The translations under genes were made by a program, and so were the position numbers. Below the pieces are notes generated by a model, which was given only the letters and a program-made list of their open reading frames with translations, made no database searches and was not told the DNA's origin. Below, piece after piece: positions 1 to 58,515 of a stretch of 64,000 nucleotides of DNA; position 1 is the stretch's first letter; each line of letters opens with the position of its first letter. The stretch is from a virus. The stretch covers positions 18,181-82,180 of the IMG/VR virus record IMGVR_UViG_3300033146_005950; one strand, given 5' to 3'.

Positions 1-259
1 AATTTTAATTTTCTGGAGATTTTTACTTGTTAAAATCTACAGAACTTGTTTTAGCTTTAGCTGAAACAATACAATAAAATAAAATAAAACTAAAATTATT
101 TAAGACTTATAAATTTTAATTTAAAATATTTCAATTCATATTTAAAATACAATTGTAGATAGTTCCAAATAAAATTGGAACTGAACCATTTTTTAAATCA
201 TCATACAGATGCTAAAAAATTCTAAAGAATTTGCTTCTCTATATATAATATAATAAAGG
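1..259 (+). repeat. Structured non-coding element, copy 1 (inverted relative to 47798..48163); may extend beyond the window start
   Basis: 6..69 is the exact reverse complement of 48095..48158. 148..195 is the exact reverse complement of 47884..47931. 212..238 matches 47820..47846 except in a 2-nt hairpin loop. Each block folds into hairpins. Confidence 0.9.
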
Positions 260-489
260 TAGGAGAGCACATCCACCATCGCTTTTTAGCTATTATTAAT
301 CAACACATTAACATTTAAGAAATTTCTTGAAAACTTTTCTAAGCGATTTTCATTTTTTTCTTAAGTCTTCATAAAAATAACTAATATTTGGTAATTTGAA
401 ATTAAAAATTTTTTAGTTTCAAAAAATAAATATAATTTAAATAAGATAAAAAAAAAATCAATAATTAAAAACATAGGACTTCGCAGATT

Positions 490-769: not shown

Positions 770-2056
770 ATGGCAGAATTAAATCATTTCCCGTTTTATT
801 TTGAAATTACTGCGACTGAAAATTGCCCACAAAATTTTTGGGAAGATTGCCGTATCAAAAATATTACAAAAAGTAATATTAGATTTGAGGATATTAATGG
901 AAATAATTTAGATAGGTATATAATGCATTTTAATTCTGCAATTGGGTCAGAAAGACTTACTGCTTATATCAAAATGCCCCAAATAACAGACTCAACAAAC
1001 ACATCATTTAAAGTCGTTTTAGATAAAGACGCTTCATTGACTTCATTAAAATCTGCGACTTATTATATGCCTGCTTACAATACAACATATTCAAATAAAG
1101 GAACCGACCATTCATTACGATACCCAATTTTTGCAGGTGAAACGAACCCAGGAACTGCGTTAGGGTCTTCAAATCAAATTACATTAGATTCAAACACAAG
1201 CATTGTAATTGATGAAAGTAAAACAGGTTTAGATAAAGGCTATATTGAATTTACAGGTGCAGCATCAGATCCTTGTATAATTACAATATTCGATACTGAT
1301 ATTCATACAAGATTTATGCACCCGGGAAATAGTTATTGGGATATTTTAGAATTTTCATTAAAAACACCAGCAACAATACCAGATAAATTTGAAATATTAA
1401 ATTTTACAATTTCAAATACAACTTCAAATGTTGCGCCTGATGCGAACACGAGGGCGGACGATTTTTCAGATCGCACAACGGGTACTAACACAGTTCTTGG
1501 AAGTATAATGTATATGAACACTCCAACGAATGACGACCAATCAAAATTTGTATATACAAATGCTTATAATACTCCTAACAGTGATCATTTTTTTAAAAAA
1601 ATATTCAATACAAATGACACTTTAACTCCAAACACTTGGTATAATTTTAAAATGATAATGGGTAATGTTGGGGATAATTATAATATAAATTCTCTTAATA
1701 ATGTTATAAGTAACAACAGTAATGCAGACTCTATTGCTTATCTTGATGACAGTTATCTTTCCAGAATTATTAATAATGATTCTTTTATCGGGAGAATAAA
1801 TTTAGGAAGTTTGGACGGTAAAACATTTAATTATGACACCAATTATACAAGTATTGGAGACCACACAAAAGGAAATTGTCCAAATATAAAATTTTCAAAT
1901 ATAAATTTACAAACTATAATGTTTGAAACGGGCGGTAGTGCTGACTGGTATGATGAGGGGGATGTTGGCGCAGATAAAACAATTTATTCAACTGAACAAA
2001 TAACAGCGATAAATAGAAATATTCAAAATAATGCAGATTATGTAATTGTTCTTTGA
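770..2056 (+). CDS. Putative virion structural/adhesion protein (DUF2341-like N-terminus, beta-sandwich C-terminus)
   Basis: 428 aa, Asn/Thr-rich. N-terminal NIRFEDINGNNLDRYI...AYIKMPQI resembles DUF2341. Followed by a terminator-like hairpin. Confidence 0.5.
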   Translation: MAELNHFPFYFEITATENCPQNFWEDCRIKNITKSNIRFEDINGNNLDRYIMHFNSAIGSERLTAYIKMPQITDSTNTSFKVVLDKDASLTSLKSATYYMPAYNTTYSNKGTDHSLRYPIFAGETNPGTALGSSNQITLDSNTSIVIDESKTGLDKGYIEFTGAASDPCIITIFDTDIHTRFMHPGNSYWDILEFSLKTPATIPDKFEILNFTISNTTSNVAPDANTRADDFSDRTTGTNTVLGSIMYMNTPTNDDQSKFVYTNAYNTPNSDHFFKKIFNTNDTLTPNTWYNFKMIMGNVGDNYNINSLNNVISNNSNADSIAYLDDSYLSRIINNDSFIGRINLGSLDGKTFNYDTNYTSIGDHTKGNCPNIKFSNINLQTIMFETGGSADWYDEGDVGADKTIYSTEQITAINRNIQNNADYVIVL

Positions 2057-5287: not shown

Positions 5288-5470
5288 TTGGTAACTCCTT
5301 TGTTTTGTTGTTTTGTTATATTAATAATATATAACAAATTTTAAGTTAAATATGCTTTTTTATAAAGAAAAAGTGTAACTTATTATAAATCAATAAGTTA
5401 CAAAATGAAATTTTTTTGTTTTATTTTTCTGTTTTTTATAAAGTATTAAAAATCAATGGTTTATAAGTTT
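5285..5470 (-). promoter_or_regulatory. Duplicated early-type promoter/leader region, copy 1
   Basis: ~185-bp near-identical direct repeat of 25404..25593. Contains RBS AAGGAG, a TATATT -10-like box and the 11-7-11 palindrome TGTAACTTATT-ATAAATC-AATAAGTTACA (5374..5402). Confidence 0.85.
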
Positions 5471-15136: not shown

Positions 15137-18100
15137 TTAATTAATCTCGTATTCAATTGTAATATGAATATATGAAACAGTACCAGAGACAGCCGTAACT
15201 TCTAACCAAACATATTCATTTTGATTTATTGCAATTCCACTTTTTGTTACTTCAGCCCCGTTTAAACCTGATGAAACTAATTGCCCATTTACAATTGTGT
15301 TTATTGCAGTCCCGACTGAAGTTCCAGATTTAATATTAAAAGTAACTGAAGAACCGTCTTTAACAACGGCTTGAACTGTATTTACTTTTAACGCTTTTGT
15401 TGTGAACCAAATGGGTATTAAATCTGTATCAACTGGAGCAGGTAAATAAATTGCTTTACTTAATAAATTTTTAGATTTTTCTAATTTATTATTTAATTCT
15501 GTATTTAAATCTGTTTGGTTCGTTATTATTCCGGTTATCCCACCCCAAGCAATGTTAGAAGATGCCCCGGGTGAAAGTACTTTTTTAATTGTAATTGTGT
15601 TTGCTCCTGAAAGCGCTTGTATTTGAGCTGTACCACGGGTGCGCATTAAATGAACTTCAATAACATCATTTACTTGTAAATTTTTAATAATTGATGAAGA
15701 AGCGGAAGACCCAAAATTTGCCTGTCTCATATATAATTCGCCATAAGTACCCGAAACATCATTTGAATTTATTACTAATTTAGATGCAGCTTCAGATCTT
15801 ACATTTCCACTGTTTCCTTTTATTGACACATTATAAGTAATTTCATATTGCCCCGCTTCTTGAATTTCAATCGTTCCCGCTGAAATTACTGAATACGCAG
15901 AACAAGTTGCAGATACGGTATTAAATGGAACTTTTTGCCAAGTCCCGTCTAATGCTAAATCAGTATTATTATATAAACTTAAAACTTTAGGGTCTTCTTT
16001 AGAATCATCAACATATTTTTTAGTCGCGGGTTCATAATCAGATGCCGGAGTAAACGAAGCTGTATTATCTAATTCTAATACATTATTTTTATTTGCCTTT
16101 AAATTTAATGCAGTTTGTGTATCATTTGAAATTGGTTTATTTAAATCTGAAGTATTATCAACATTGCCCAAACCAACATCAGATTTATTAACATTATGAG
16201 GATTATTTGTGTTTGAAATATGACTTTGAATATTTGTGTTTTTAGGTTCATAATCAGAATCGTGATTATGATTTCCTTCTGCAACTTCTCCACTATTATT
16301 TCCAAAATTTTTATTGAAAGCGGTGTTTTCTGTGAAGTCATCTTTCTTTCCAGCTAATTCATTTTGTAAATCTGTTTGATTAGTAATATCCCCGATTATA
16401 TCACCCCAAGTAATATTCTCAGCTGTGCCGCCTGAAATTGAAGGAATTAATATTTTTTTAATTGTAATTGAAGTTCCGTTCCCAGATGCTTTTACTGTAT
16501 TACTTCCATCTACCACTTTTGCTCTTATTCTTAACATATCACTGTCATCTAAGTCAAAAATATAGCTGTATGATGCAACTGCTCCATATTGAGTTTTCTT
16601 TATAAATAAAGTATTTTCAGTACCCGGGATATTAGTGTAATTTTTTTGTAGCATTATTTTTACAGAAGTATCAACAGTCCCCGCTGAGGCAACTAAATCA
16701 ATATGAAAATTTACTTCATATTGTCCTGCATTATCTAAAGTTATTTCACCGTTGCTATTTGTGTAACCACCACCTGTAATATCAATAACATTAAATGGTA
16801 CTGTTTGATAGTTCATAGATGAAATTGTAAAATCATTAGTGTTCCTTGCTGCAAAAACATCCGGGTCTTTTAATTTATCGTCAACATATTTTTTAGTTGC
16901 AGGTTCATAATCAGCCGCCGGAACAAACGAAGTTGTGTTATTTAATTCTAATACATTATTTTTATCTGCTTTATTATTTAAAAGATTTGCGACTGCGTTG
17001 CTAACAGGTTTATTTAAATCTGAAGTATTATCAACATTGCCCAAACCAACGTCAGATTTATTAACATTATGAGGATTATTTGTGTTTGAAATATGACTTT
17101 GAATATTTGAATTAGCAGGTTCGTAAACTCCATTATGATTATGATTTCCTTCTGCAACTGTTGAAGCAGCCGTACCAAAGTCTTTATTAAAAGCACTGTT
17201 TTCGGCAAAGTCATCTTTCTTTCCATCTAATTCATTTTGTAAATCGGTCTGATTAGAAATGTTTCCAACAATTGTACCCCAAGTTGTATTACCATTGCTT
17301 TCAATAACACCTGCTGCAACGATCTTTTTAAGATTTAACGAAACACCTTTTACAGTCGTATTAATTGAAGAAGTACCAACCGTTCTACTTGCGATTACCT
17401 TTAATACATCATTTTCGTTTAAATTTAATATTGCGGTTGCAGTACCGTGTGTACCATAATTTTTTAGTCTACAATATATTGTTGATTGAGTTCCATTCAC
17501 ATCTGAGCCATTTAATTGTAATTTAGTTACGACAGTGCTTCTTGAACTTCCACTGGCTACTTCAAAATCAGCGTGATAAATTATTTCATATTGTCCATCT
17601 TTTAATATTGTAACTTCACCATTATTATTATGAGAATAAGAATCATCTATTATATCAACCGTGTTTAACGGGATTGTTTGAAAACTACTTGAGATAGAAA
17701 ATGCATTATTGTTATGCGCAAAATATACAGACGGCTCATCAACAGAATCATCAACATATTTTTTAGTCGCAGGTTCATAATCAGCATCTGGAGTAAATGA
17801 AGTTGTATTATCTAATTCTAATACATTTGTTTTGTCTGCTTTTAAATTTAACGCAGTTTGTGTATCATTTGAAATTGGTTTATCTAAGTCTGAAGTATTA
17901 TTTACTGCTCCTAAACCTATTTGGCTTTTTGTCACTACGTGCGGGTTTGTTTGATTGCTAATATGACTTTGAATATTTGAATTGACAGGTTCATAAACAG
18001 TATCGTGATTATGGTTCCCCATTGAAACAGTGTTAGAAGTAGTTCCAAAGTCTTTGTTGAAGGCTGTTTTTTCTGTGAAGTCATCTTTCTTTCCATCTAA

Positions 18101-18475
18101 TTCATTTTGTAAATCTGTCTGATTGGTAATGTTGCCTGATATATTGCCCCAAGCAACTTCTTCGCTCAAATCAATTTCACCATCACCATCTTCATCATAA
18201 ACCGAACCGCCAACATTTGATTTATGATAAAAATTAAATGTGTTTTGTATTATTGCAATATAAACATCTGCACTTGTAGATGTTGGGTTATATGTGTTTA
18301 GTTCATTAGTAATTAAAGAAACATCTTTATTACCACTAAAATTTATTAAAATGTCATCTGCAAATTTTCTTGTGTATAATAATCTATTTATATTTGTAGT
18401 TGAACCCGAAGTATAAAATACTCCATCTAAATAAAGGTTTGAACCTGAAATATAAATTTGATCTACTCTTTCCAT
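15137..18475 (-). CDS. Modular tail-fibre-like protein (three repeated stalk plus C1q/BclA-like head modules)
   Basis: WGxIxGxIxNQTDLQNEL occurs four times; NHNH...SHISN..NPH.V.KS.VGL..V.NTSD and DYEPATKKYVDD three times each, each set followed by a divergent beta-sandwich. Confidence 0.8.
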   Translation of the reverse strand: MERVDQIYISGSNLYLDGVFYTSGSTTNINRLLYTRKFADDILINFSGNKDVSLITNELNTYNPTSTSADVYIAIIQNTFNFYHKSNVGGSVYDEDGDGEIDLSEEVAWGNISGNITNQTDLQNELDGKKDDFTEKTAFNKDFGTTSNTVSMGNHNHDTVYEPVNSNIQSHISNQTNPHVVTKSQIGLGAVNNTSDLDKPISNDTQTALNLKADKTNVLELDNTTSFTPDADYEPATKKYVDDSVDEPSVYFAHNNNAFSISSSFQTIPLNTVDIIDDSYSHNNNGEVTILKDGQYEIIYHADFEVASGSSRSTVVTKLQLNGSDVNGTQSTIYCRLKNYGTHGTATAILNLNENDVLKVIASRTVGTSSINTTVKGVSLNLKKIVAAGVIESNGNTTWGTIVGNISNQTDLQNELDGKKDDFAENSAFNKDFGTAASTVAEGNHNHNGVYEPANSNIQSHISNTNNPHNVNKSDVGLGNVDNTSDLNKPVSNAVANLLNNKADKNNVLELNNTTSFVPAADYEPATKKYVDDKLKDPDVFAARNTNDFTISSMNYQTVPFNVIDITGGGYTNSNGEITLDNAGQYEVNFHIDLVASAGTVDTSVKIMLQKNYTNIPGTENTLFIKKTQYGAVASYSYIFDLDDSDMLRIRAKVVDGSNTVKASGNGTSITIKKILIPSISGGTAENITWGDIIGDITNQTDLQNELAGKKDDFTENTAFNKNFGNNSGEVAEGNHNHDSDYEPKNTNIQSHISNTNNPHNVNKSDVGLGNVDNTSDLNKPISNDTQTALNLKANKNNVLELDNTASFTPASDYEPATKKYVDDSKEDPKVLSLYNNTDLALDGTWQKVPFNTVSATCSAYSVISAGTIEIQEAGQYEITYNVSIKGNSGNVRSEAASKLVINSNDVSGTYGELYMRQANFGSSASSSIIKNLQVNDVIEVHLMRTRGTAQIQALSGANTITIKKVLSPGASSNIAWGGITGIITNQTDLNTELNNKLEKSKNLLSKAIYLPAPVDTDLIPIWFTTKALKVNTVQAVVKDGSSVTFNIKSGTSVGTAINTIVNGQLVSSGLNGAEVTKSGIAINQNEYVWLEVTAVSGTVSYIHITIEYEIN

Positions 18476-20597: not shown

Positions 20598-20716
20598 TTA
20601 GAATTTCTCCTCATATTTTTGAATAAAGTAAAGCTATTTAATTTTAATTATATTTATTTTTTAAATTAATTTAAACAAACAAACAAATAAACAAACAAAT
20701 AATCATTAAAATACAA

Positions 20717-20756: not shown

Positions 20757-20797
20757 GATTTATAGGGGAAAAAAACTAAATTAGTTTGTCTGTTTGT

Positions 20798-21523
20798 TTA
20801 AATTAATTTAAAAACATTCGTCAATATATTCACCTTCTGAAATTTCTGCATCTCCAGCAACAAAACATTCACCTCTAATAATTGCGTTTCCATAAACTTC
20901 TGCTCATAAACTTCTGCGTTTCCATAAATTTTCGCATTATCATAAATTACTGCGTACCCAGAAACCAATGCATCGTCGTAAATTTGTGCATCGCCATAAA
21001 CTTGTGCATTACCAAAAACTTTTGCACCATCATAAACTTGTGCATCTCCATAAACTTGTGCATTACCAAAAACTTCTGCATCGTCATAAATTACTGCGTA
21101 TCCAGAAACCAATACACCACCATAAACTTGTGCATCGCCATAAACTTTTGATTTACCAAAAACTTCTGCATTTTCGCAAACTTCTGCAGCACCGTAAACT
21201 TTTGCACCATCATAAACTTGTGCTTCACCATAAACTTTTGCGTCTCCGTAAACTTGAGCTTCACCGTAAATTTCTGCATTGTCATAAACTTCTGCGTGCC
21301 CATAAATTACTGCATTATCTTTAACAACTGCTGACTCAAAAACAATCGCGTCTTGAAATACCCAGCAATTATCTTTTTGGTTTAAATTATCTTTATTTTC
21401 AACTAAGCCGCCCCAGTCGCCTTCTTTTACTTTTTTACCAATTACAGTTCTAAAGTTTTTCAGTGCTTTAATTCTGTAATATTTGCCTTCAGGTACCATT
21501 TCATATTTTAATTTTTGACTCAT
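20798..21523 (-). CDS. Hexapeptide-repeat (left-handed beta-helix) protein, paralog 1, with an apparent frameshift near 20904
   Basis: N-terminal KYEMVPEGKY.RI.ALK.F...GGLVEN..NL.Q.DNCWVF, then (AxVYGx)n. One repeat unit is 14 nt instead of 18. The alternative frame continues AEVYGNAIIRGECFVAGDAEISEGEYIDECF to a stop at 20808. Confidence 0.85.
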   Translation of the reverse strand: MSQKLKYEMVPEGKYYRIKALKNFRTVIGKKVKEGDWGGLVENKDNLNQKDNCWVFQDAIVFESAVVKDNAVIYGHAEVYDNAEIYGEAQVYGDAKVYGEAQVYDGAKVYGAAEVCENAEVFGKSKVYGDAQVYGGVLVSGYAVIYDDAEVFGNAQVYGDAQVYDGAKVFGNAQVYGDAQIYDDALVSGYAVIYDNAKIYGNAEVYEQKFMETQLLEVNVLLLEMQKFQKVNILTNVFKLI

Positions 21524-25406: not shown

Positions 25407-25593
25407 TTTGATAACTCCTTTGTTTTGTTTTTGTTTTGTTATATTAATAATATATAACAAATATTGAGTTAAATATGCTTTTTTATAAAGAAAAAGTGTA
25501 ACTTATTAAAAATCAATAAGTTACAAAATGAAATTTTTTTACTTTATTTTTGTGTTTTTTATAAAGTATTAAAAATCAATGGTTTATAAGTTT
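25404..25593 (-). promoter_or_regulatory. Duplicated early-type promoter/leader region, copy 2
   Basis: Near-identical to 5285..5470, including the palindrome TGTAACTTATT-AAAAATC-AATAAGTTACA. Confidence 0.85.
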
Positions 25594-44134: not shown

Positions 44135-44166
44135 TTTTTAACAGTCTCCTTTTTTTCAATTATTTA

Positions 44167-44192
44167 AATATATAATTTTATTTTTCAAAATA
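44167..44192 (-). promoter_or_regulatory. Replication-gene promoter motif, copy 1
   Basis: TATTTTGAAAAATAAAATTATATATT; identical at 47609..47634 and 2 mismatches from 58430..58455. Confidence 0.7.
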
Positions 44193-44265
44193 AAATAGAA
44201 AAGGTCAGAAATATTTTAAAATATTCCCAACCTAATCTAATTTTAAAAACATTAAAAGTCTTTAA

Positions 44266-44841
44266 TTAAAATACAAACTCATAATCATCAATTTTGAACA
44301 CAATATCATAAACTATTTTCTCAGCACCGTCTGCCGCGAGAGACACTTCAGGAACTGATGTAGGCCAAAGATTTTTAAGTTTTATCTTTTGCAATGGAGT
44401 CATATCGTACTTAAAAGTTGTTATAAATGCAGTAACTGCAAAACCGCCTTCTTTATGACTAAAACCAGGTAATGCTCCACCAGTTGAAGTTTTTTCTTTA
44501 TTGATATTCTGAATCACTTCTCCCCAGTTCTCAAATAGTTTTCGTACTGCGCCTGTGTTACCATCTTCTTCAAACTGAACTGTAATATCAGTCACTGGTA
44601 CTTTTTTACCAGGGTGCCAAATTTGGTCTCCCATATAATCAGACTGTATTGGATCAATTGTCCATCCTGGTATATTTACTGCTCTTACTGAAGTTGTAAA
44701 ACCTTCAGGTTGCCCGATTGTACTTGGCATACCAGCAATACCATTTAGTCTTGAAATTTCAGGAATACTAAATTCATATAACCAACTACGCTGTACATCT
44801 CTTGTTTGTATTGAAGTTTGAGGCACTGTAAATCCTGCCAT
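44266..44841 (-). CDS. Tail tube protein (gp19-like)
   Basis: RSWLYEFSIP, AVNIPG.TI, ITVQFEED, LKNLWPTSVPEVSL, F..D.Y; late motif upstream. Confidence 0.9.
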   Translation of the reverse strand: MAGFTVPQTSIQTRDVQRSWLYEFSIPEISRLNGIAGMPSTIGQPEGFTTSVRAVNIPGWTIDPIQSDYMGDQIWHPGKKVPVTDITVQFEEDGNTGAVRKLFENWGEVIQNINKEKTSTGGALPGFSHKEGGFAVTAFITTFKYDMTPLQKIKLKNLWPTSVPEVSLAADGAEKIVYDIVFKIDDYEFVF

Positions 44842-44945: not shown

Positions 44946-45107
44946 TTAGAAAAATGACTCAAAACCAAAATCGTTGCCAAAAGATTCTTCAAGTGCTGCG
45001 CCGAGTGCTTCAGCTTCTTCAATATCTTCTTCTGTAATATTAATTTCTTCAACACTATTATTTTTTTCTTCAACAATAGTTTGTTTTTTATTTTGTTTCT
45101 TTTTCAT
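44946..45107 (-). CDS. Small acidic protein (53 aa), below the ORF-track cutoff
   Basis: MKKKQNKKQTIVEEKNNSVEEINITEEDIEEAEALGAALEESFGNDFGFESFF; AAGGAG RBS; TAATG overlap with the upstream gene. Confidence 0.7.
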   Translation of the reverse strand: MKKKQNKKQTIVEEKNNSVEEINITEEDIEEAEALGAALEESFGNDFGFESFF

Positions 45108-47587
45108 TAATCTTCTCCTTTTAATTTAAGATATTCTTTTCTTTCAAATATATTCTCAGATTTTATAATATCAGGAACAAAGTCTGATATTACAACCGTC
45201 TCAACATCTTTGTTCAATAATAACCTGCTTCTACCAATTGCTTGAACCATTTCAGAATTTATATCGTCTAATTGTGTTTTTCTAAGTCCAGTGTCAAGAA
45301 ATGTAAAAAACTTAAAATAATGTTTTCCATTTTTAACACCCATTGTTGATTTAGAAAATGTATTTGGCAAAGTCAATTTAGTTTTATTTTTATTATTTTT
45401 ATTATTAAAATTTAATTTAGCAATATGTTTCAATATATAAAATTGTTCAGGTTTCCTAAATGTTGCTGCAACGACTGTGTTCTTACCGCTTAATGAATTG
45501 TATCCGGAAGTATTGCCCATATAAATTTTATAATGTTCATCAAAATTCATTTCGCTTGCATATTTTTTATATGTAATTATGTCGTCCGCGCCCGCTAATT
45601 CTGCTATTTCGGCGATTTGTTTTTTTAAATATTTGTTTTTATTAAAATTTACTTTCCCGGTTGGAATTTTTACTTGATTTAGTTCTCCTAATAATTCCAT
45701 TTCAATTTCATAAACATTAACTTTTCTATCTTTATAATATTTTTCATAAAAATCTGTATCAATTGTCGCGGATAATATTACAATTGTTTGAGAAGGAAGT
45801 TCTCTTACTGATGCAAATGTTTCATTACTTATAATAAAAGAGCCAATTAAATTTAAAGTTGTTGCTGAAATTATTTTTTTATTTTTATAAACTTTATCTA
45901 AAATATATTTAATTTCCTTCTTAGATAACGGGTTCCGTTTAAAATCACTTCTTTTATCAATTGATTTTATTGCATTTATCAAAGATAATAACGGTCCTTT
46001 TTTACTGTCTGCAATTATTTCATATATTTCATCTAATTCTGACAAGACTTTGGTCTTTTTAAATGTTGAAGTTTTAAATAATGAATTAACTGGGTCTTCA
46101 TCGTAAGCGACCATTCTAACATTTGTATTAAATTTTGTTACTAAACTTTTTTCGTGTGTTGTAAATGTTCTTTTTGATAACGGTAAATTATTTTTGCGCA
46201 GCCATTCTTTACCGCCTCTTCTACTTTTAATAAAGTTTGAAGCAGAATAATATCCCTCAATCTTATAAATGTTTGTTATTGTTTCATAATCTTCTTCAGA
46301 TAAAAAGTCTTTTACATTTAAAGATTCAAATGGCTTATCTGAGTATAAATTAATATATTCATTTATTTTTTCAGATTTTAATTGATGATTAGGAAACGCA
46401 AGTACTGAACTTTCTGCTAATTCTTTCATTGCTGCAAAAGTTTTGCCTCCGCCTGTTGGGACTTTAATTAAATTAATGCTGCCCTTCTCACTTTTCCTTA
46501 CTTTTGTTAAAATATTTTTTAATTCACTTCTTAATTTATCAATATCTCCTTTCGCAATTGGCTCCGTTTTTTTATTAAAATCAACGTCGAGCGAAGAAAA
46601 TATTTTGCTTTTTAAATTAATTTGTAAATCCGTATTATACAATGACTTACAAGCGCATTTCTTTGAACAATTTGAGCAAGAGAGATTAAATACATTGTTC
46701 TTAATAATTGATGCTTGAATAGCTTTATTAACAGCATTATTATATTTTCCGCTAATCATAATTTTTGATTTATTAAAATTTACTAAATTTGATATTGTAA
46801 TGACTTTATCCTCGTTTGAAACTTCATTAAAATCTAATTGTAAGTTCAAACATTTTATTTTTGAAATATCAAAGTCTTTAATAATATTAAACGAATCTTC
46901 AGCAATTAACAAATCATCATAATTCGTTGTTTTTTTATAATGATTTTGTTGCATATTTTTAATAACTTTTTTAATTTTCATTGACTCCATTTTGTCTCTG
47001 TCACTGTACTCATAATTTGTAATAAAGTTTAGTGATTCGACTGCATTATCATAAAATTTTTTATTTATGTCATCTGAAATAAAAATTGATTTGTACTTAA
47101 TTGAGTTATGAGATGAAATTAAAATACCGTTTTCAACAGTATTTATTTCAAAAAATTCTTTCAGGATCATATGCAGAGCTTTTTGAACACTTTTAATATT
47201 TTGGTTTGTTTTACTATTGGCTAAATATAAAAGCTGCAAATTACCGTTTCTACCGTGTAATACACAATTAGGCATTAATGGGATGTTTTTGATATAATCT
47301 AATATTTTTTGTTTTGATGTTCCGCTACTAAGACCTGCTTCAATATTAAAAGCCATAATTTGTTGATTTATATTAGTATCAAATTTAGATGCTACGATTG
47401 TTGTGTCATATAAATCACAAAAGTCTTTTAACGAATTGAATTCTCTGTTTTTATCAATATTTTTAATAAGGTCGAGCTTATTGGGTTTAGTAAACCTGTC
47501 AAGTTCATAATAAGGTCTTATTTTTCCGACCGAAATTCTTAATAATGTTTTTGCTTCAATAATTTCAAATTTAATCATTTTTATCAA
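45107..47587 (-). CDS. Large SF2-helicase-like protein, possibly origin-binding or primase-helicase type
   Basis: KVPTGGGKT (I), AYDEDP (II), ILSAT (III), MVQAIGRSR (VI). Cys cluster CSNCSKKCAC precedes the helicase core. Probable ATG start at 47578. Confidence 0.7.
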   Translation of the reverse strand: MIKMIKFEIIEAKTLLRISVGKIRPYYELDRFTKPNKLDLIKNIDKNREFNSLKDFCDLYDTTIVASKFDTNINQQIMAFNIEAGLSSGTSKQKILDYIKNIPLMPNCVLHGRNGNLQLLYLANSKTNQNIKSVQKALHMILKEFFEINTVENGILISSHNSIKYKSIFISDDINKKFYDNAVESLNFITNYEYSDRDKMESMKIKKVIKNMQQNHYKKTTNYDDLLIAEDSFNIIKDFDISKIKCLNLQLDFNEVSNEDKVITISNLVNFNKSKIMISGKYNNAVNKAIQASIIKNNVFNLSCSNCSKKCACKSLYNTDLQINLKSKIFSSLDVDFNKKTEPIAKGDIDKLRSELKNILTKVRKSEKGSINLIKVPTGGGKTFAAMKELAESSVLAFPNHQLKSEKINEYINLYSDKPFESLNVKDFLSEEDYETITNIYKIEGYYSASNFIKSRRGGKEWLRKNNLPLSKRTFTTHEKSLVTKFNTNVRMVAYDEDPVNSLFKTSTFKKTKVLSELDEIYEIIADSKKGPLLSLINAIKSIDKRSDFKRNPLSKKEIKYILDKVYKNKKIISATTLNLIGSFIISNETFASVRELPSQTIVILSATIDTDFYEKYYKDRKVNVYEIEMELLGELNQVKIPTGKVNFNKNKYLKKQIAEIAELAGADDIITYKKYASEMNFDEHYKIYMGNTSGYNSLSGKNTVVAATFRKPEQFYILKHIAKLNFNNKNNKNKTKLTLPNTFSKSTMGVKNGKHYFKFFTFLDTGLRKTQLDDINSEMVQAIGRSRLLLNKDVETVVISDFVPDIIKSENIFERKEYLKLKGED

Positions 47588-47608
47588 TCCTTTTTTATTT
47601 TCAATAAT

Positions 47609-47634
47609 AATATATAATTTTATTTTTCAAAATA
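47609..47634 (-). promoter_or_regulatory. Replication-gene promoter motif, copy 2
   Basis: Identical 26-mer to 44167..44192. Confidence 0.7.
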
Positions 47635-47797
47635 CAAATTTTTTTTAATTTAATTCATATTTTTATTTATTTTAGCTTGTATGTGTCTATTTCGTTAGTT
47701 TTATACTTTAATTATACGTATAATTTTTAATTTATATGCAGAATTATAAATGATTGATTTTTATATAGCAATTTTGAGGAACCACGACTATAGTGAT

Positions 47798-48163
47798 CCT
47801 TTATTATATTATATTATATAGAAGCAAATTCTACAGAATTTTTTAGGAAACTGTAAGGATATTTTAATATCCTGAATGTTGAATAAAAAATGGTTCAGTT
47901 CCAATTTTATTTGGAACTATCTACAATTGTAAAAACTATTATAAATAAATTTTAAAAACTGTAGTTTATTTTAGTCAATTTTAATATTTTAAAGAACTGT
48001 AGTTTATTTTAATCAAATTTAGTTTATTTTAATATTTTAATCAAATTTAGTTTATTTTAATATTTTAATTAAATTTAGTTTATTTTATTATTGTTTGTTT
48101 CAGCTAAAGCTAAAACAAGTTCTGTAGATTTTAACAAGTAAAAATCTCCAGAAAATTATAATT
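47798..48163 (-). repeat. Structured non-coding element, copy 2, with an internal iteron-like tandem array
   Basis: Three hairpin blocks shared with 1..259; five TAGTTTATTTTA units in ~47960..48087. Confidence 0.9.
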
Positions 48164-48407
48164 TTTTATTTGATTTAAGTCTTTAAGTACTTTTATTAAA
48201 AATTTGAAATTTAAAAATTTAAGTATTTTAAAAATTTCAAAAATAAAGTAATTTCGATTTTTTAAACTTGTTTTAAAAATCTTGTTTTTAACTTGTTAAA
48301 AACAACAAATACAATTTTAATCTAATTGCTCGGTTACGGAATGAATAACAAAAAATAAATAGAAACAATATATTAAGTTAAAAATAATTAAAAATTATAA
48401 GGAAACA

Positions 48408-52744: not shown

Positions 52745-53266
52745 ATGGGTTTTCCAAATACATCAAGAAATTCTAATTTTTTAGTTAGTATATCAAATAT
52801 ACCTGGTTTAACAAATCACAGGGCGTTTAAATATTTCGATAATTATATTCGCTCTGTTGATTTACCAGACTTTAGTTTAGATTTTGTTGAAAGTGTAATT
52901 TTAGATTATACAATTAATCACCCAATTTCTCAGAAGAACAATTCTTTATCTGAAATTACTTTAACGTTCAAACTATCTGAAGATTTAATGAATTATTTTT
53001 ATGCGTTTAGATATATACAATCTGTCCGTTATGGAAATAATGAAAATAAAGACGTTAGTGAGAAATTAGTTGATGATGTAATAAATTCAGTAATAGTGAC
53101 TGCTCTGGATAACCAACAAAGACCAGTTGCAAAAATTGAGTATAAGAATTTATTTATTTCAAATTTAAGTTCATTATCATTGGCTTATGGCGAAGATATG
53201 GAAAGTGAGTTTTCAATATCTCTTAAATATGAAAATATAATTATAAAAATTGAAGGAGATGATTAA
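52745..53266 (+). CDS. Tail completion/sheath stabiliser (gp3-like)
   Basis: SVDLPDFSL, ITLTFKLSEDLMNY, IEYKNLFISNLSSLSL. Confidence 0.8.
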   Translation: MGFPNTSRNSNFLVSISNIPGLTNHRAFKYFDNYIRSVDLPDFSLDFVESVILDYTINHPISQKNNSLSEITLTFKLSEDLMNYFYAFRYIQSVRYGNNENKDVSEKLVDDVINSVIVTALDNQQRPVAKIEYKNLFISNLSSLSLAYGEDMESEFSISLKYENIIIKIEGDD

Positions 53267-54824: not shown

Positions 54825-55163
54825 ATGGAGAATACATATAAAATAAACACATTTAATAAATATAAGATTAATACATCAGTTGGCTTCAGACATTTTGAAG
54901 GTATTCAAAAATTATATAAAGAATGCTTAAAAATATCATTTGCTAATTTAGATAAAAATATCATTATAACAACAGACCAATTATTATGGAGTTTTAATAA
55001 ATGGGTAAAAGCTTCAGACTTAAAAGAAGGTGACTTAGTTGAAAATAATAAAGTAGGCTCAGTTGCAATAATAAAAATAGAAAATATTGGAGTTCAACCT
55101 GTTTTTGATATTATAAATTCAGATGTACAACATTTTACTACAGACGGGTTTACTGCGCATAAT
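54825..55163 (+). other. Split intein C-fragment (IntC, 113 aa)
   Basis: GFRHFEGIQK, WVKASDLKEGD, VFDI...HFTTDGFTAHN|C; no block-A N-terminal Cys segment. Confidence 0.88.
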
Positions 55164-55970
55164 TGTAGTTTTATTGGTTCTTCTAAAACATTGATAAGAG
55201 CTGATTTATTAGAAGGTTTAAGAGCTGAAGACCCGATTGAAGTAAGACTAAATTATAAATTAAAAATATTTACTGCTCCAATTGAAAATCATATTTATAT
55301 TTTAGGAGCGGATCCGTCAGAAGGAACTGGTAATGATAATTCTGTTATTCAAGTTTTAGATATTACAAATCCTAAAAAAATATTACAGGTCGCGACATTT
55401 TCAGATAATAAAACAGACCCTTATAAATTCTCAGATATTATTGTAGGATTATCTGAAACTTATAATAATGCTGAAATTGTCGTTGAAAGCAATTCTGTTG
55501 GAATTTTAGTAACAAATAGAATATGGAGAGATTTAGATTGCGACAGTTTAGTAAATATTTCTGAAAATGGAAAAGGATTAGGAATAAAAGCAACAAAGAA
55601 AACAAAAAAATTAGCAAATATGATTTTTAAACGTTTTGTTGAAAATAATTGGTTTTTAATAGTAAATAAAGACACAATTTCAGAATTAGGTAAATATGAA
55701 GAGCAAACAAACGGCAGTTATAAAGTACCAGAGCCCGACCACGATGACCAAGTCACTTCATTGATTTATATAATGTATTATTTAGAATCTGATTATAATG
55801 AGCATTCTGAAGTTTATGAATCGACAGAAATTGATAAAGAATTAAAAGAAGAGCTGAGTTTTGTGCCGTTATCAATATCAAGCTCAGATATTGAAGATGA
55901 CGAGAATAATGATTATGGGTATAATTATGACGGTTTTGATAACGGTCTTGATTATTTAAATGTTTTTTAA
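54825..55970 (+). CDS. Terminase large subunit C-half (nuclease domain, gp17-like) fused behind a split-intein C-fragment
   Basis: Residues 1-113 are Hint-like and end FTAHN. +1 Cys starts CSFIGSSKTLI, then YILGADPSEGTGNDNS, VVESN, HDDQV. No ATPase domain. Confidence 0.92.
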   Translation: MENTYKINTFNKYKINTSVGFRHFEGIQKLYKECLKISFANLDKNIIITTDQLLWSFNKWVKASDLKEGDLVENNKVGSVAIIKIENIGVQPVFDIINSDVQHFTTDGFTAHNCSFIGSSKTLIRADLLEGLRAEDPIEVRLNYKLKIFTAPIENHIYILGADPSEGTGNDNSVIQVLDITNPKKILQVATFSDNKTDPYKFSDIIVGLSETYNNAEIVVESNSVGILVTNRIWRDLDCDSLVNISENGKGLGIKATKKTKKLANMIFKRFVENNWFLIVNKDTISELGKYEEQTNGSYKVPEPDHDDQVTSLIYIMYYLESDYNEHSEVYESTEIDKELKEELSFVPLSISSSDIEDDENNDYGYNYDGFDNGLDYLNVF

Positions 55971-56097: not shown

Positions 56098-58353
56098 ATG
56101 GCTAATAATGTACCTGGTTCATTTAAAAAAGAATTAGATAAAAGCTTAACAATTTCGGCAACGGATACAGTCGCCGGTGCAATTGTAATTAAAAGCCCAA
56201 AGGGTAGAATAAATACTCCAATTACAGTAAGTAATGAGGCAGAATTTATTGAAGAATTTGGAAAACCAGTTTTTAGTGGTAAAAGTAAAGTTCCAGAATA
56301 TGGTTATGGAATGTATGCAGCACTCAAGTATTTATCAATTTCAGATAAAATTACTATTGTAAGAGTTCCTTCAGTGACTGTTTCAGGGACTGATATTACT
56401 GAGGCTGACGAATATGCAGTTGGTGGATTAAAATATGAAAGTAATGCACTATCACCCGTTTATTATACAAATGAAGAAGGAGTCGCACCTTATAAAGAAG
56501 ATGACGCAACAAGTTATTCTTCACCAGTAGTTCCAAACACACCAACCCGTATTATTGATTTAGATAATGCGACCGCAATTGCTGATTCTAAATTTTCAAT
56601 TTTCTTTTCTGCTCCTGGCGCAGAAGGTAATAATATTGCATACTCAATTGAATTTTTTGGTGGTAACTCTGATTGGAAATATAATTATGACCCAGATTCT
56701 AATGTTGATACAGTTATAAGTAAAATTAAAGATGGCACAGCAACAACGGATGATATTACTTCTATTATTGCAACTCAGGTTTTTAAGCTTTCTTTTTATA
56801 GCAAAAACTCTTCAGAGAATTGGCCTACTAATTTTACAAATGGTTCTATCAAACCTGATAAAGTTATTTATGCTTCACTAAATAATATTTTAGATGCAAA
56901 TAAAGAATCTCTTTATATTGGCGATAAAATTGAAATGATGAACTCATTATATTTTATTGAGAATGAAACTCTTACGAATCAAGAATTATTAGATATTGTT
57001 AAACGTGGTTTTGATGATACGGTTTTAATTGAAGGACAAACTGATTTTTCTGATGCTGAAGATTTTATGCCAATTGATGATTCATATTCATATGTTTCTT
57101 CAATGGTAGATGATGAATATTATTATATTGCAAAACCAAAAACAGAAGCTGCTGACGCAAGTAATACTTCATCAATTGACTCTTCTTCAGTTGAACGTTT
57201 AATCGCAAGCTCAAATATGGAAGTTCGTTATAAAGCACAATCTGATGGAAGTGAAGGTTTTTATATTCGTCCGGTTGGCTCAACAACAGAAGGAACGACA
57301 AGATATGTTGAAGACACAAATGGCAATCTTGCAAATGAATCTGACGCAAATGATATTTTATTATATGCAGACGGAACACCAATTAAATTACCTTTTAAAG
57401 AATTAGTAATTGAGTCAAAACCTGATTCTGAACAACCTGGAGAATTTGTTTTTATTGCTCTTAAAGGTGGTAATAATTCAGAAACAGGAACTTCTGATAT
57501 AAATAACATTCAAGGTTGGAGTTATTTAGCAAATAGAGAATCTGTTGATGCAAATATAATTTTAGTACCTTCTCCAAAAACAACAGTAAAACAGCACGTT
57601 GCATCACACGTTATTGATGTTAGAAAAGATTGTGTAATGGAAGCTCAGTCAGGTTCAATCGATAATTTAGATGCAGATTCAATTATTGCTGCAGAAAGTT
57701 ATGGTTATTCAAGTCCTTCATTTGTTTCTCTAACAGCAGGTTTTACTAAAGTTAAAGATTCTTATAATGATAAATTTGTATGGCTTCCTAATTCAATATT
57801 TGCTGCATATACAGATGCTAAAACTGCGATTGAGGCAAATGTTTGGGATTCTCCTGCAGGTAACCCTCGTGGTATTATTTCAGGTATTGAACAATTAGTT
57901 ACATTTAGTGAAGGCGATTTATCAAAACTTTTTGCTGCAAATATAAATGCTGCGAAAATGTTTGCTGGTGTTGGTTCAGTAATTTGGGAAAGCTTAACGG
58001 CTCTTCGACAACATACAGCATTAAGAAGCAAAAGTGTTCGTTTCAATATAAACAATATTGAAAATACTTTAGAAGAATACACAAATTCATTAGTTCATAA
58101 TATTAATAATACTGAGACAGAAAGAACGAGAATCGAACTTAAGTTTGATAAATTTCTTTCTGGTATTAAAAATGCAGGCGGTTTGTATGATTATAAAGTT
58201 CAATGTGATGATGAAAATAATACACCTGAGGTTATTGATAATGAAGAGTTAGTAATTTGGGTATTTTTAAAACCTGTACGGAATGTTAAATTTATTAAAT
58301 TAACTTATGTTATTACTGATTCTGGAGCAAGTTTCGATGAAATTCAGGTTTAA
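56098..58353 (+). CDS. Tail sheath protein (gp18-like)
   Basis: PG....E.D.S, EFIEEFGKP, RKDC, WDSPAGNPRG, CDDENNTPEVIDNEEL....LKPVR.VKFI.L. Confidence 0.95.
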   Translation: MANNVPGSFKKELDKSLTISATDTVAGAIVIKSPKGRINTPITVSNEAEFIEEFGKPVFSGKSKVPEYGYGMYAALKYLSISDKITIVRVPSVTVSGTDITEADEYAVGGLKYESNALSPVYYTNEEGVAPYKEDDATSYSSPVVPNTPTRIIDLDNATAIADSKFSIFFSAPGAEGNNIAYSIEFFGGNSDWKYNYDPDSNVDTVISKIKDGTATTDDITSIIATQVFKLSFYSKNSSENWPTNFTNGSIKPDKVIYASLNNILDANKESLYIGDKIEMMNSLYFIENETLTNQELLDIVKRGFDDTVLIEGQTDFSDAEDFMPIDDSYSYVSSMVDDEYYYIAKPKTEAADASNTSSIDSSSVERLIASSNMEVRYKAQSDGSEGFYIRPVGSTTEGTTRYVEDTNGNLANESDANDILLYADGTPIKLPFKELVIESKPDSEQPGEFVFIALKGGNNSETGTSDINNIQGWSYLANRESVDANIILVPSPKTTVKQHVASHVIDVRKDCVMEAQSGSIDNLDADSIIAAESYGYSSPSFVSLTAGFTKVKDSYNDKFVWLPNSIFAAYTDAKTAIEANVWDSPAGNPRGIISGIEQLVTFSEGDLSKLFAANINAAKMFAGVGSVIWESLTALRQHTALRSKSVRFNINNIENTLEEYTNSLVHNINNTETERTRIELKFDKFLSGIKNAGGLYDYKVQCDDENNTPEVIDNEELVIWVFLKPVRNVKFIKLTYVITDSGASFDEIQV

Positions 58354-58385: not shown

Positions 58386-58423
58386 AAAATAGCGGAGTAA
58401 TTTATAATTATTTCGCTATTTTT
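58386..58423 (+). terminator. Terminator after the sheath gene
   Basis: AAATAGCGGAGTAAT...ATTATTTCGCTATTTTT hairpin. Confidence 0.75.
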
Positions 58424-58429
58424 CTATTT

Positions 58430-58455
58430 TATTTTGAATAAAAAAATTATATATT
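58430..58455 (+). promoter_or_regulatory. Replication-gene promoter motif, copy 3
   Basis: TATTTTGAATAAAAAAATTATATATT upstream of the DNA polymerase gene. Confidence 0.65.
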
Positions 58456-58515
58456 AATAGTAGAAACAAATCAGTATAAAAGTTTAATTGGTTTCTAATT
58501 AAAGGAGAATTATCA

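Follow-up and report, generated by a model that had tools for sequence, protein, structure and literature searches.

A repeated multi-hairpin module at divergent gene junctions in a distant T4-type phage: a probable control region or origin of replication

Genome setting

The viral record IMGVR_UViG_3300033146_005950 of IMG/VR contains a non-coding element built of short, hairpin-forming blocks in two inverted copies that lie 48 kb apart, and a third copy with the same block order is found on a related contig of 18,501 nt (L004). The element is a selected, directional and recombining non-coding module located at major divergent junctions. The window, that is, the whole stretch of DNA that was analysed, comprises the 64,000 nt from base 18181 to base 82180 of the 82,180-nt record, which is estimated to be 43% complete. 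Coordinates below are window positions unless marked genome, L002, L004 or L010.

Judged by its gene content, the record is a fragment of a distant T4-superfamily phage. Genes of T4 type include those for the tail sheath, the N-terminal half of the DNA polymerase, the C-terminal half of the terminase and the DNA end protector, and a DNA ligase, a helicase, a RuvC-like resolvase and RegA are also encoded. The portal protein shares merely 28% identity with its best listed matches among known phages, and a blastn search of a phage collection with the 1-kb region around the element gave no match. The guanine-plus-cytosine (GC) content of the 82-kb record is 27%, and 2-kb windows of the analysed stretch range from 24 to 35%. 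GC skew tracks the coding strand in every gene block across the window, hence the skew switch at copy 2 is not independent evidence for an origin, although GC skew was among the checks proposed in the initial annotation. The N-terminal half of the terminase large subunit is encoded on L004 (6136-7077, plus strand) and the C-terminal half alone in the window (54825-55970, plus strand), and for this reason L004 and the analysed record probably represent complementary parts of the same kind of genome.

According to the open reading frame (ORF) map, the 82 kb contain three non-coding gaps of at least 250 nt, two of which are occupied by the element, and the element is found at two of the record's four minus-to-plus divergent junctions. 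Copy 1 has a RuvC-like gene and a gene for a 428-residue protein as its neighbours. Copy 2 lies, as noted earlier, at a strand switch, with minus-strand genes at 12234-47587 and plus-strand genes from 48408, and its block C side points toward a gene for an 826-residue protein. On L004 the element occupies the sole large gap, with a primase gene read leftward on one side and gp46-gp55-gp47 read rightward on the other. The block C side faces an operon read away from the element at all four loci (the three copies and the related contig L010, described below), and the opposite side, marked by a 13-mer, faces an oppositely read gene in all three copies. The element copies end about 200-250 nt from the start codons, block C stopping about 220-235 nt short of them, with a separate promoter motif in between.

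Anatomy of the element

Read 5' to 3', the element consists of the 13-mer TTCCGTAACCGAG, block A, an AT-rich spacer, block B and block C, with a total length in the alignment of 340-540 nt across the copies. Its left boundary is the shared 13-mer and its right boundary a shared (TATAA)n-AAAGG tract. In copy 1 the 13-mer lies at genome 18093-18105 in the aligned copies, 87-75 nt before the window start, so that the repeat, which had been thought to start at window base 1, reaches 87 nt further to the left. In copy 2, which extends over about 47807-48341 on the minus strand, the 13-mer lies at 48329-48341; it is the sole stretch common to all three left flanks.

Block A is an exact common substring of 64 nt in the three copies (6-69, plus strand, in copy 1 and 48095-48158, minus strand, in copy 2) and is made up of two adjacent imperfect hairpins, TTCTGGAGATTTT/AAAATCTACAGAA and TTGTTTTAGCT/AGCTGAAACAA. 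Block B is likewise invariant over 48 nt (148-195, plus strand, and 47884-47931, minus strand) and comprises the palindrome TACAATTGTA, a hairpin at 160-183 in copy 1 and 47896-47919 in copy 2, and then AACCATTTTT, which together are terminator-like. Block C (212-255, plus strand, in copy 1 and 47807-47846, minus strand, in copy 2) features the palindrome CTAAAAAATTCT-AA-AGAATTTGCTTCT with a variable 2-nt centre, followed by (TATAA)n ending in AAAGG. The 27-nt core of block C (212-238 versus 47820-47846) differs between copies 1 and 2 solely at the two central bases, AA in the former and GT in the latter. All three block identities agree with those described in the initial annotation.

The spacers diverge in both length and sequence, again as described earlier, with 35-43% identity between copies 1 and 2. 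The spacer between blocks A and B is 78 nt long with 7.7% GC in copy 1 (70-147, plus strand) and 163 nt long with 9.8% GC in copy 2 (47932-48094, minus strand), where it is enlarged by tandem repeats: a 28-nt unit present 3.1 times and five exact units of TAGTTTATTTTA at 47962-48087. The five units, which were already counted correctly in the initial annotation, compare with 0.10 expected, and five were reached in none of 100 shuffles. Over all copies the A-B spacers have 6-10% GC, and the 160-nt window with the highest AT content in the 82-kb record falls within that of copy 2. Tracts of 6-13% GC adjoin promoter-like hexamers in the element. The B-C spacer of copy 2 (47847-47883, minus strand) contains a small hairpin, AGGATAT/ATATCCT, that copy 1 does not have. 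Copy 2, the left flank of copy 1 and L010 each carry tandem repeats of 28-29 nt, with mutually unrelated sequences; copy 3 has no repeats of this size and contains AACAAG three times. Between blocks A and B, copies 1 and 3 carry just low-complexity AT repeats of 5 and 8 nt, together with a weak 23-nt repeat (1.9 units) in copy 3. Copies 2 and 3 have the hexamer TATAAT 5 nt ahead of block A, where copy 1 reads TTTAAT. The left spacer of copies 2 and 3 also holds a degenerate block A in the opposite orientation, here called A' (48250-48311, plus strand, in copy 2).

Conservation and recombination between copies

When the IMG/VR viral contigs were scanned for exact matches to a 34-mer from block A and a 35-mer from block B, L004 alone was found, and the same type of exact scan over genome contigs gave no match. 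No partial block copies were found in the 82,180-nt record and L004 at up to about 20% mismatch. The exact 64- and 48-nt matches between the two inverted copies are expected, by our own estimate, at most about 1e-16 times in 64 kb of this composition. The duplication is not an assembly artefact, as its flanks are unique and the same blocks recur in a third copy on L004, an independent contig.

The 13-mer, block A and block B, 125 nt in all, are 100% identical in the three copies, and block C is 86-90% identical. Between the blocks, resemblance alternates from one pair of copies to another. Copies 2 and 3 match from the 13-mer to block A (87%), copies 1 and 3 from block A to block B (78%, as against 43% for copies 1 and 2), copies 2 and 3 again from block B to block C (84%), and copies 1 and 3 in the right flank (82%; 260-379, plus strand, in copy 1, which has 51% identity to its counterpart in copy 2). 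In every segment the non-matching pairs show 35-54% identity, which is background for this composition. Since the spacer identities alternate between partners around identical blocks, the pattern requires that copy 3 differs from the others by at least three exchanges, with crossovers inside the invariant blocks. The mosaic thus supports the earlier suggestion that the copies are recombination substrates.

Had the blocks diverged to the extent of the best-matching spacers (13-22%), zero differences over 125 nt would have a probability of 3e-8 to 3e-14, and the proposal that block-wise conservation reflects selection is upheld by this comparison. That the blocks end so sharply favours selection on their sequence, with its loops and linkers, over broad gene conversion as the sole cause of the identity.

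Folding and terminator scans

The significance of each fold was expressed as a z-score against shuffled sequences. Block A folds with -20.7 kcal/mol (z -5.1) on the forward strand of the element and with -16.2 kcal/mol (z -3.6) on the reverse strand, and the forward advantage of 4.5 kcal/mol arises via a G.U pair seen on that strand alone, in keeping with the one-sided wobble pair pointed out in the initial annotation. Block B folds with a z-score of -2.5, so the hairpins named earlier in blocks A and B do fold, and the fold of block C is not significant (z -0.25). The folds of the right flanks gave nothing decisive. Rfam 15 had no match at the gathering threshold, and none at E<=1, over the four loci.

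A terminator-like site coincides with block B and points in the same, forward direction in all three copies, compared with 0.0-0.2 sites expected from shuffles. No other terminator-like site was found in the regions of copies 2 and 3, and one more was found in that of copy 1, with 0.2 expected there.

Diverged relatives and paralogous hairpins

Of the two neighbouring genes of copy 3 used as queries, primase returned its own contig alone and gp46 gave L010, a contig of a relative phage with a 63% identical gp46. L010 starts inside the intergenic region, the left part of which is cut. Upstream of gp46 it carries, in order, a tandem array (28-/39-nt units), two hairpins, a third palindrome and CTCTCTAT(TA)n, beyond which about 170 nt lead to the same proximal promoter motif as on L004. 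Hairpin 2 of L010 keeps the foot CTTGTTTT/AAAACAAG of block A hairpin 2 with a different top, and the palindrome-plus-TATA tract aligns with block C at about 75% identity over 33 nt by our own count, the register of the palindrome being shifted. The L010 hairpins fold equally well on both strands. Positions 1-290 of L010 comprise two strong GC-containing hairpins (-26.3 kcal/mol, z -7.1) and an array of about seven units with 95-96% matches.

A search with a covariance model of block A recovers A' at 27 bits in the left spacers of copies 2 and 3 (E values of 0.0034 and 0.00034). Hairpin 2 of A' is retained through three double changes in apical pairs, and A' explains the cluster of AACAAG motifs. 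The model also matches, with 19.5 bits, a double hairpin 290 nt to the left of copy 1 that has the same layout and other stems. In the alignment of these hits 98% of the cells are paired and 14 of 22 pairs show double-sided changes, as compared with none of 500 shuffles as high and slid controls with 40-60% paired; this is not an unbiased covariation test, since the alignment was fitted to the structure, the rows were chosen by the model and reverse-strand palindrome matches were included. The alignment does show that hairpin-forming modules recur at these loci. The earlier proposal that selection acts on structure is weakened: the evidence for structure comes from the diverged paralogues and L010 alone, and within the lineage loops and linkers are as invariant as stems, which points to recognition by sequence.

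Flanking promoter motifs

Six strong sites in the record, scoring 31-41 as against 17 for the next best site, share a sharply defined promoter-like motif, T(T/G)CTATTTTATTTTGAAAAATAAAATTATATATTA, about 35 nt long. Replication-type genes have it 25-45 nt ahead of their start codons. The motif precedes the gene for the 826-residue protein, where it contains TTTTGAAAAATAAAATTATATATTA and lies between element and gene (47601-47642, minus strand), as well as the DNA polymerase gene and others, the remaining sites being at window 44159-44200 (minus strand) and 58422-58463 (plus strand) and at genome 10392, 12926 and 16408 (minus strand). On L004 it precedes primase and gp46, with a site at 1872-1913 (plus strand). 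Motifs of this class are conserved in three related contigs (L024/L010, L031 and L043) and probably constitute the early or middle promoter class of the phage. A 20-mer of the motif matched 38 stretches. Element-level similarity was detected by blastn in L004 alone, and the matches other than the promoter-motif contigs were unrelated AT-rich contigs.

A second, late-type motif, AAAAATAAATA, is a variant of the T4 motif TATAAATA and precedes the sheath gene as well as a series of other large genes. One site (48351-48361, plus strand) belongs to the gene for a 1243-residue fibre-like protein beside copy 2 and lies just outside the 13-mer. Further sites are at 56110-56125 and 410-425 (both plus strand), the latter before an 83-residue ORF downstream of copy 1. 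Because the flanking genes carry outward motifs of their own, the element lies between back-to-back outward promoters. At L002 740-1100 (genome about 17420-17780) a GC-richer stretch follows a late-type motif and opens with TTCCGTAACGG, which has 10 nt in common with the boundary 13-mer; Rfam had no match to this stretch at E<=1.

Three further candidates for transcription signals were considered and dropped. A promoter of the phage's own class directly before block A scored 6, as compared with 31-41 for true sites. A MotA-type middle promoter at block C (TTTGCTTCT) has the wrong spacing, and a search of the fragments for MotA gave no match, as it also did in the control genomes. TTCTnnAGAA as a repeated operator occurs at six sites in 82 kb (12 strand-matches), close to the 3.5 that we estimate from composition.

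The 826-residue neighbour of copy 2

The gene next to the block C side of copy 2 (45107-47587, minus strand) encodes an 826-residue protein whose residues from about 348 to 826 form an XPD/DinG-like superfamily 2 (SF2) helicase. Contrary to the initial annotation, the protein is not an orphan, as it has 355 relatives at E<=0.001, seven of them at E<=1e-30. The suggested linkage of the element to this protein is not supported, since the gene adjoins just one of the three copies, the other two being located beside the RuvC-like and 428-residue protein genes and beside primase and gp46, respectively. Pfam and PHROGs gave no match for the protein itself; among 40 aligned relatives, eight match DEAD and three match ResIII. 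Motifs I, II, III and VI are invariant across these 40 relatives (Gly 381 and Lys 382; Asp 496 and Glu 497; Ser 606 and Ala 607; Gln 782, Arg 786 and Arg 788). The AlphaFold model has a mean predicted local distance difference test score of 77.8, and its best Foldseek match is XPD with an E value of 1.2e-10. In the VIA comparison with Xpd4, 365 residues of the model (within residues 350-817) were aligned with a Z score of 15.0 and a root-mean-square deviation of 5.9 Å. The predicted structure contains two RecA-like motor domains with an XPD-type fold. A homologue with 40% identity exists (P0005), a protein-guided search of the viral contigs found no relative, and metagenome contigs gave a single distant match of 30% identity over residues 370-508.

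The N-terminal 340 residues resemble primase-polymerase domains, a putative assignment that we treat as a lead and that draws on the Atlas listing and on the family consensus LDFD / KFRxVxxLD. Where the relatives have LDFD (the DxD motif) and KFRxVxxLD, the present protein reads NIE and LQLLYLAN, which suggests an inactivated primase-polymerase-like domain kept ahead of an intact helicase. Searches of PDB sequences with the N-terminal part gave no match. An alignment of the N-terminal fragment to full-length relatives fell on the helicase part and was dropped.

Other sequence features

Two paralogous proteins of about 170-190 residues, encoded at 44266-44841 (minus strand) and 52745-53266 (plus strand), both match PHROG 45 ('tail tube'), a label that may mislead, and sit among replication genes, one on each side of copy 2. 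A repeat of about 170 nt with the hairpin-like sequence GTAACTTATTGATTTTTAATAAGTTAC is found at 5300-5470, at 25423-25593 and at genome about 2440-2550, with 95% identity between two of the copies, and each of the three occurrences lies just upstream of an ORF with a TTG start (332, 300 and 83 residues). A 30-nt inverted repeat, TTTTTAAATTAATTTAAACAAACAAACAAA, at 20658-20687 and 20785-20814 is 97% complementary with 97 nt between its arms, and is found beside a late-type motif in the gap upstream of a gene for a 598-residue protein.

Interpretation of the element

On sequence grounds the repeated junction module is probably a control region or a replication start site. The reading that we favour, with a probability of roughly 0.4, is a terminator/operator/promoter cassette resembling the promoter-early stem-loop (PeSL) cassettes of the T4-type phages RB49/phi1, T4/PST and KVP40/nt-1, which recombine and yield chimeras (PMC2839356; PMC4122927). 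PeSLs are about 100 bp long, abut the ribosome site and are densely repeated in hyperplastic regions (PMC2839356). Promoter, operator and terminator activities, together with a protein that reads the blocks, are what we infer for the present element. It would act as a composite, directional control cassette inserted between the back-to-back outward promoters of major divergent junctions, and the host RNA polymerase and/or a phage regulator would recognise its blocks by sequence. Such sequence-specific recognition is proposed to hold every block base constant while the AT-rich spacers drift and expand. The stem-loops of block A and the stem-loop and T-run of block B would stop or attenuate transcription entering from the left of the junction, or block B might alternatively end a short transcript begun inside the element. 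Block C would serve as a palindromic operator with a TATAAT-rich tract, starting or gating transcription into the right-hand operon from a position upstream of the proximal promoter that this operon itself possesses. The identical blocks may, as a by-product, provide crossover points for the phage's homologous recombination, by which spacers and flanks would be shuffled and the 48 kb between the inverted copies could in principle be inverted.

Several observations count in favour of a control cassette, namely the predicted terminator-like block B with one and the same orientation in every copy, the retention of block C with its (TATAA)n tract in the distant L010 directly after two hairpins, the fixed polarity at the four loci, and the mosaic recombination, which is by analogy the behaviour described for PeSLs. 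The limitation of variation in the block C core to the 2-nt centre of a palindrome, together with its insignificant RNA fold, would fit a dimer-binding DNA site, and the strand asymmetry of block A would fit a role in a forward transcript. A number of points weigh on the other side. The flanking genes already possess class motifs of their own, and a divergent gap offers little upstream transcription to terminate. In the related contig G003 a divergent junction of just 163 nt lacks the element, from which it follows that the cassette is dispensable for divergent transcription as such. A scan for sigma-70-type promoters at the three copies gave 12, 10 and 10 sites compared with 11.3, 9.9 and 7.6 in shuffles, with a consensus that may not be that of the host, and block C contains TATAAT repeats with a spacing from TTGCTT to TATAAT that we read as non-canonical. 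Of the five features by which PeSLs are recognised, the element lacks two, the abutment on the ribosome site at a length of about 100 bp and the dense repetition, and a third, the sigma-70-type promoter, is doubtful; it has two copies in 82 kb, lies 200-250 nt from the start codons and is 340-540 nt long. Finally, the predicted cassette leaves the spacer of 6-10% GC between invariant blocks unexplained, a feature that would suit an origin better.

Dispersed replication origins are the alternative that we take most seriously, doubtful as we consider them. The invariant blocks would then bind an initiator or RNA polymerase and flank an AT-rich unwinding element, and initiation would be either coupled to a promoter through an R-loop (the T4 oriF/oriG mode) or driven by an initiator (the SPP1 oriL/oriR mode), both of which are precedents for such a system (PMC3016281; PMC6316719). 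The placement of the copies, in two of the three large non-coding gaps and at two of the four divergent junctions, is in agreement with origins, as are the neighbouring replication and recombination genes (primase, gp46/gp47, XPD-like helicase and RuvC-like resolvase) and the inverted A', through which copies 2 and 3 acquire a dyad arrangement with an AT-rich centre. The low GC content of the A-B spacers, with the record's most AT-rich 160-nt window in copy 2, points the same way, except that ordinary promoter regions also have 80-nt windows as AT-rich as these. Tandem repeats of 28-29 nt are present at three of the four loci examined, yet they differ in sequence and position between copies and are thus not common iterons, and the five TAGTTTATTTTA 12-mers, being absent from the other copies, are poor candidates for that role. 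GC skew, dictated by the coding strand, adds nothing, and neither a fixed polarity to one operon nor a terminator-like hairpin is a requirement of an origin. A more specific version, in which sequence-conserved dispersed origins are opened by a non-T4 initiator in the form of the 826-residue protein, with its degenerate primase-polymerase-like domain and XPD/DinG-like helicase, strikes us as quite improbable. It would recall the herpesvirus UL9 origin-binding helicase, which acts at the palindromic oriS, and if true would amount to a dedicated origin-plus-initiator system grafted onto a T4-type replisome, with a defined set of origins where origins are otherwise ill-defined.

The block A double hairpin and the block B terminator could also mark the ends of a multi-copy small non-coding RNA gene of about 185-270 nt, starting at or just before block A and having a variable, unstructured middle, which we consider unlikely. 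The A-to-B stretch does have stable hairpins at its ends only (z-scores of -3.9 and -4.1 for copies 1 and 3, respectively; none of 200 shuffles as good), a terminator-like 3' end and a G.U pair on the forward strand only, and TATAAT precedes block A by 5 nt in copies 2 and 3. A start 7 nt past this hexamer, however, would cut off the foot of hairpin 1, copy 1 has TTTAAT instead, and the sequence before block A scores 6 against the 31-41 of the phage promoter motif. The paralogous double hairpins stay paired through double changes (98% of cells, 14 of 22 pairs), but these counts are biased by the structure-fitted alignment, the model-chosen hits and the reverse-strand palindromes, and the L010 hairpins fold equally on either strand. 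Rfam is without a match even at E<=1, and an expansion of 28-nt tandem units within the RNA, as in copy 2, would be unusual. Very unlikely in our view is the remaining explanation, that the copies delimit a large programmed inversion or constitute a mobile, non-autonomous element, either a miniature inverted-repeat transposable element (MITE) or one like a palindrome-associated transposable element (PATE). Inverted copies 48 kb apart with 64 and 48 nt of exact identity and a third copy in a different gene context would be expected from it, and modules lying between repeat regions are inverted in Campylobacter group II phages (PMC4546147). Resolvase/invertase and tyrosine recombinase families were each found in none of the four records, which are incomplete fragments, with positive controls. 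Imperfect hairpins like those of the element resemble transposon-end hairpins, but the copies lack a common boundary pair, terminal inverted repeats and a target duplication. Similarity ends at different points in different copy pairs, which fits homologous exchange and does not fit transposition. General recombination between the inverted copies could plausibly invert the 48 kb, but only as a side effect.

Comparison with known systems

The composite control cassette that we prefer shares with PeSLs the presence, in a T4-type phage, of a repeated intergenic element with one or more stem-loops of terminator character and a promoter-like tract, conserved over long intervals. A predicted terminator-like T-run adjoins a stem-loop in all three copies, and the copies recombine, with matching segments at 87, 78, 84 and 82% identity versus 35-54% for non-matching ones. 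It differs in being three to five times longer and in containing three invariant blocks plus a 13-mer. Two copies in 82,180 nt and one in the 18,501 nt of L004 contrast with the density of PeSLs in hyperplastic regions, and the element is found at major divergent junctions by core replication genes, whereas PeSLs lie among ORFans. A PeSL ends at the Shine-Dalgarno sequence and start codon, while the element lies 200-250 nt away with another promoter motif in between. PeSLs also have a strong sigma-70 early promoter with an AT-rich upstream region, and the scan of the element remained at the level of shuffles, a difference that may reflect another type of host promoter.

In the Campylobacter group II phages CP21, CP220 and CPt10, the repeat regions RR1-RR4 separate modules and are thought to drive inversion and shuffling; they consist of as many as 18 arrayed units, 72-86 bp in length, with the 13-nt core AAACTTAAAGCAA (PMC4546147). 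These are likewise T4-related phages of low GC content, whose large modules are separated by a small number of long non-coding repeat regions, direct or inverted and variable in unit number. The element is made of ordered, unique blocks, not of an array, and its tandem units are 28-29 nt long. The core AAACTTAAAGCAA has no match in the window with up to one mismatch, and the present phage is just distantly related to known phages (28% for the portal protein to its best listed hits).

T4 itself has three active origins at transcriptional divergence points, of which oriF and oriG combine a promoter with an AT-rich unwinding element and oriE has iterons (PMC3016281). The element is similar in that several sites per genome occur at switches of transcription direction, with a promoter-like tract beside a very AT-rich stretch and direct repeats at some sites. 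The T4 origins, however, are without a common motif, whereas the element copies have invariant blocks. SPP1 has two similarly organised origins, oriL and oriR, with the same repeats in both, bound by gp38 (PMC6316719). Two sites per genome, repeats and an AT-rich unwinding element are common to both systems, and one of the SPP1 origins lies in a long intergenic region; in the element the tandem repeats differ between copies and the hairpin blocks alone are shared.

Outside T4, the control elements and origins of T4-type phages are poorly defined, and the known repeated cassettes, PeSLs and the repeat regions of Campylobacter phages, are mainly understood as genome-shuffling engines. The present element, from a distant and uncultured member of the group, provides an unusually clean case, in which a few copies of one ordered module have near-frozen blocks and drifting spacers, with crossovers mapped to the blocks. 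Should the copies be origins, they would supply a recognisable origin sequence and a candidate initiator for a T4-type phage; should they be regulatory, the PeSL idea would extend to core-gene junctions and to much larger composite units. On either reading, the protein that recognises the blocks could be sought with the blocks themselves as ready probes.

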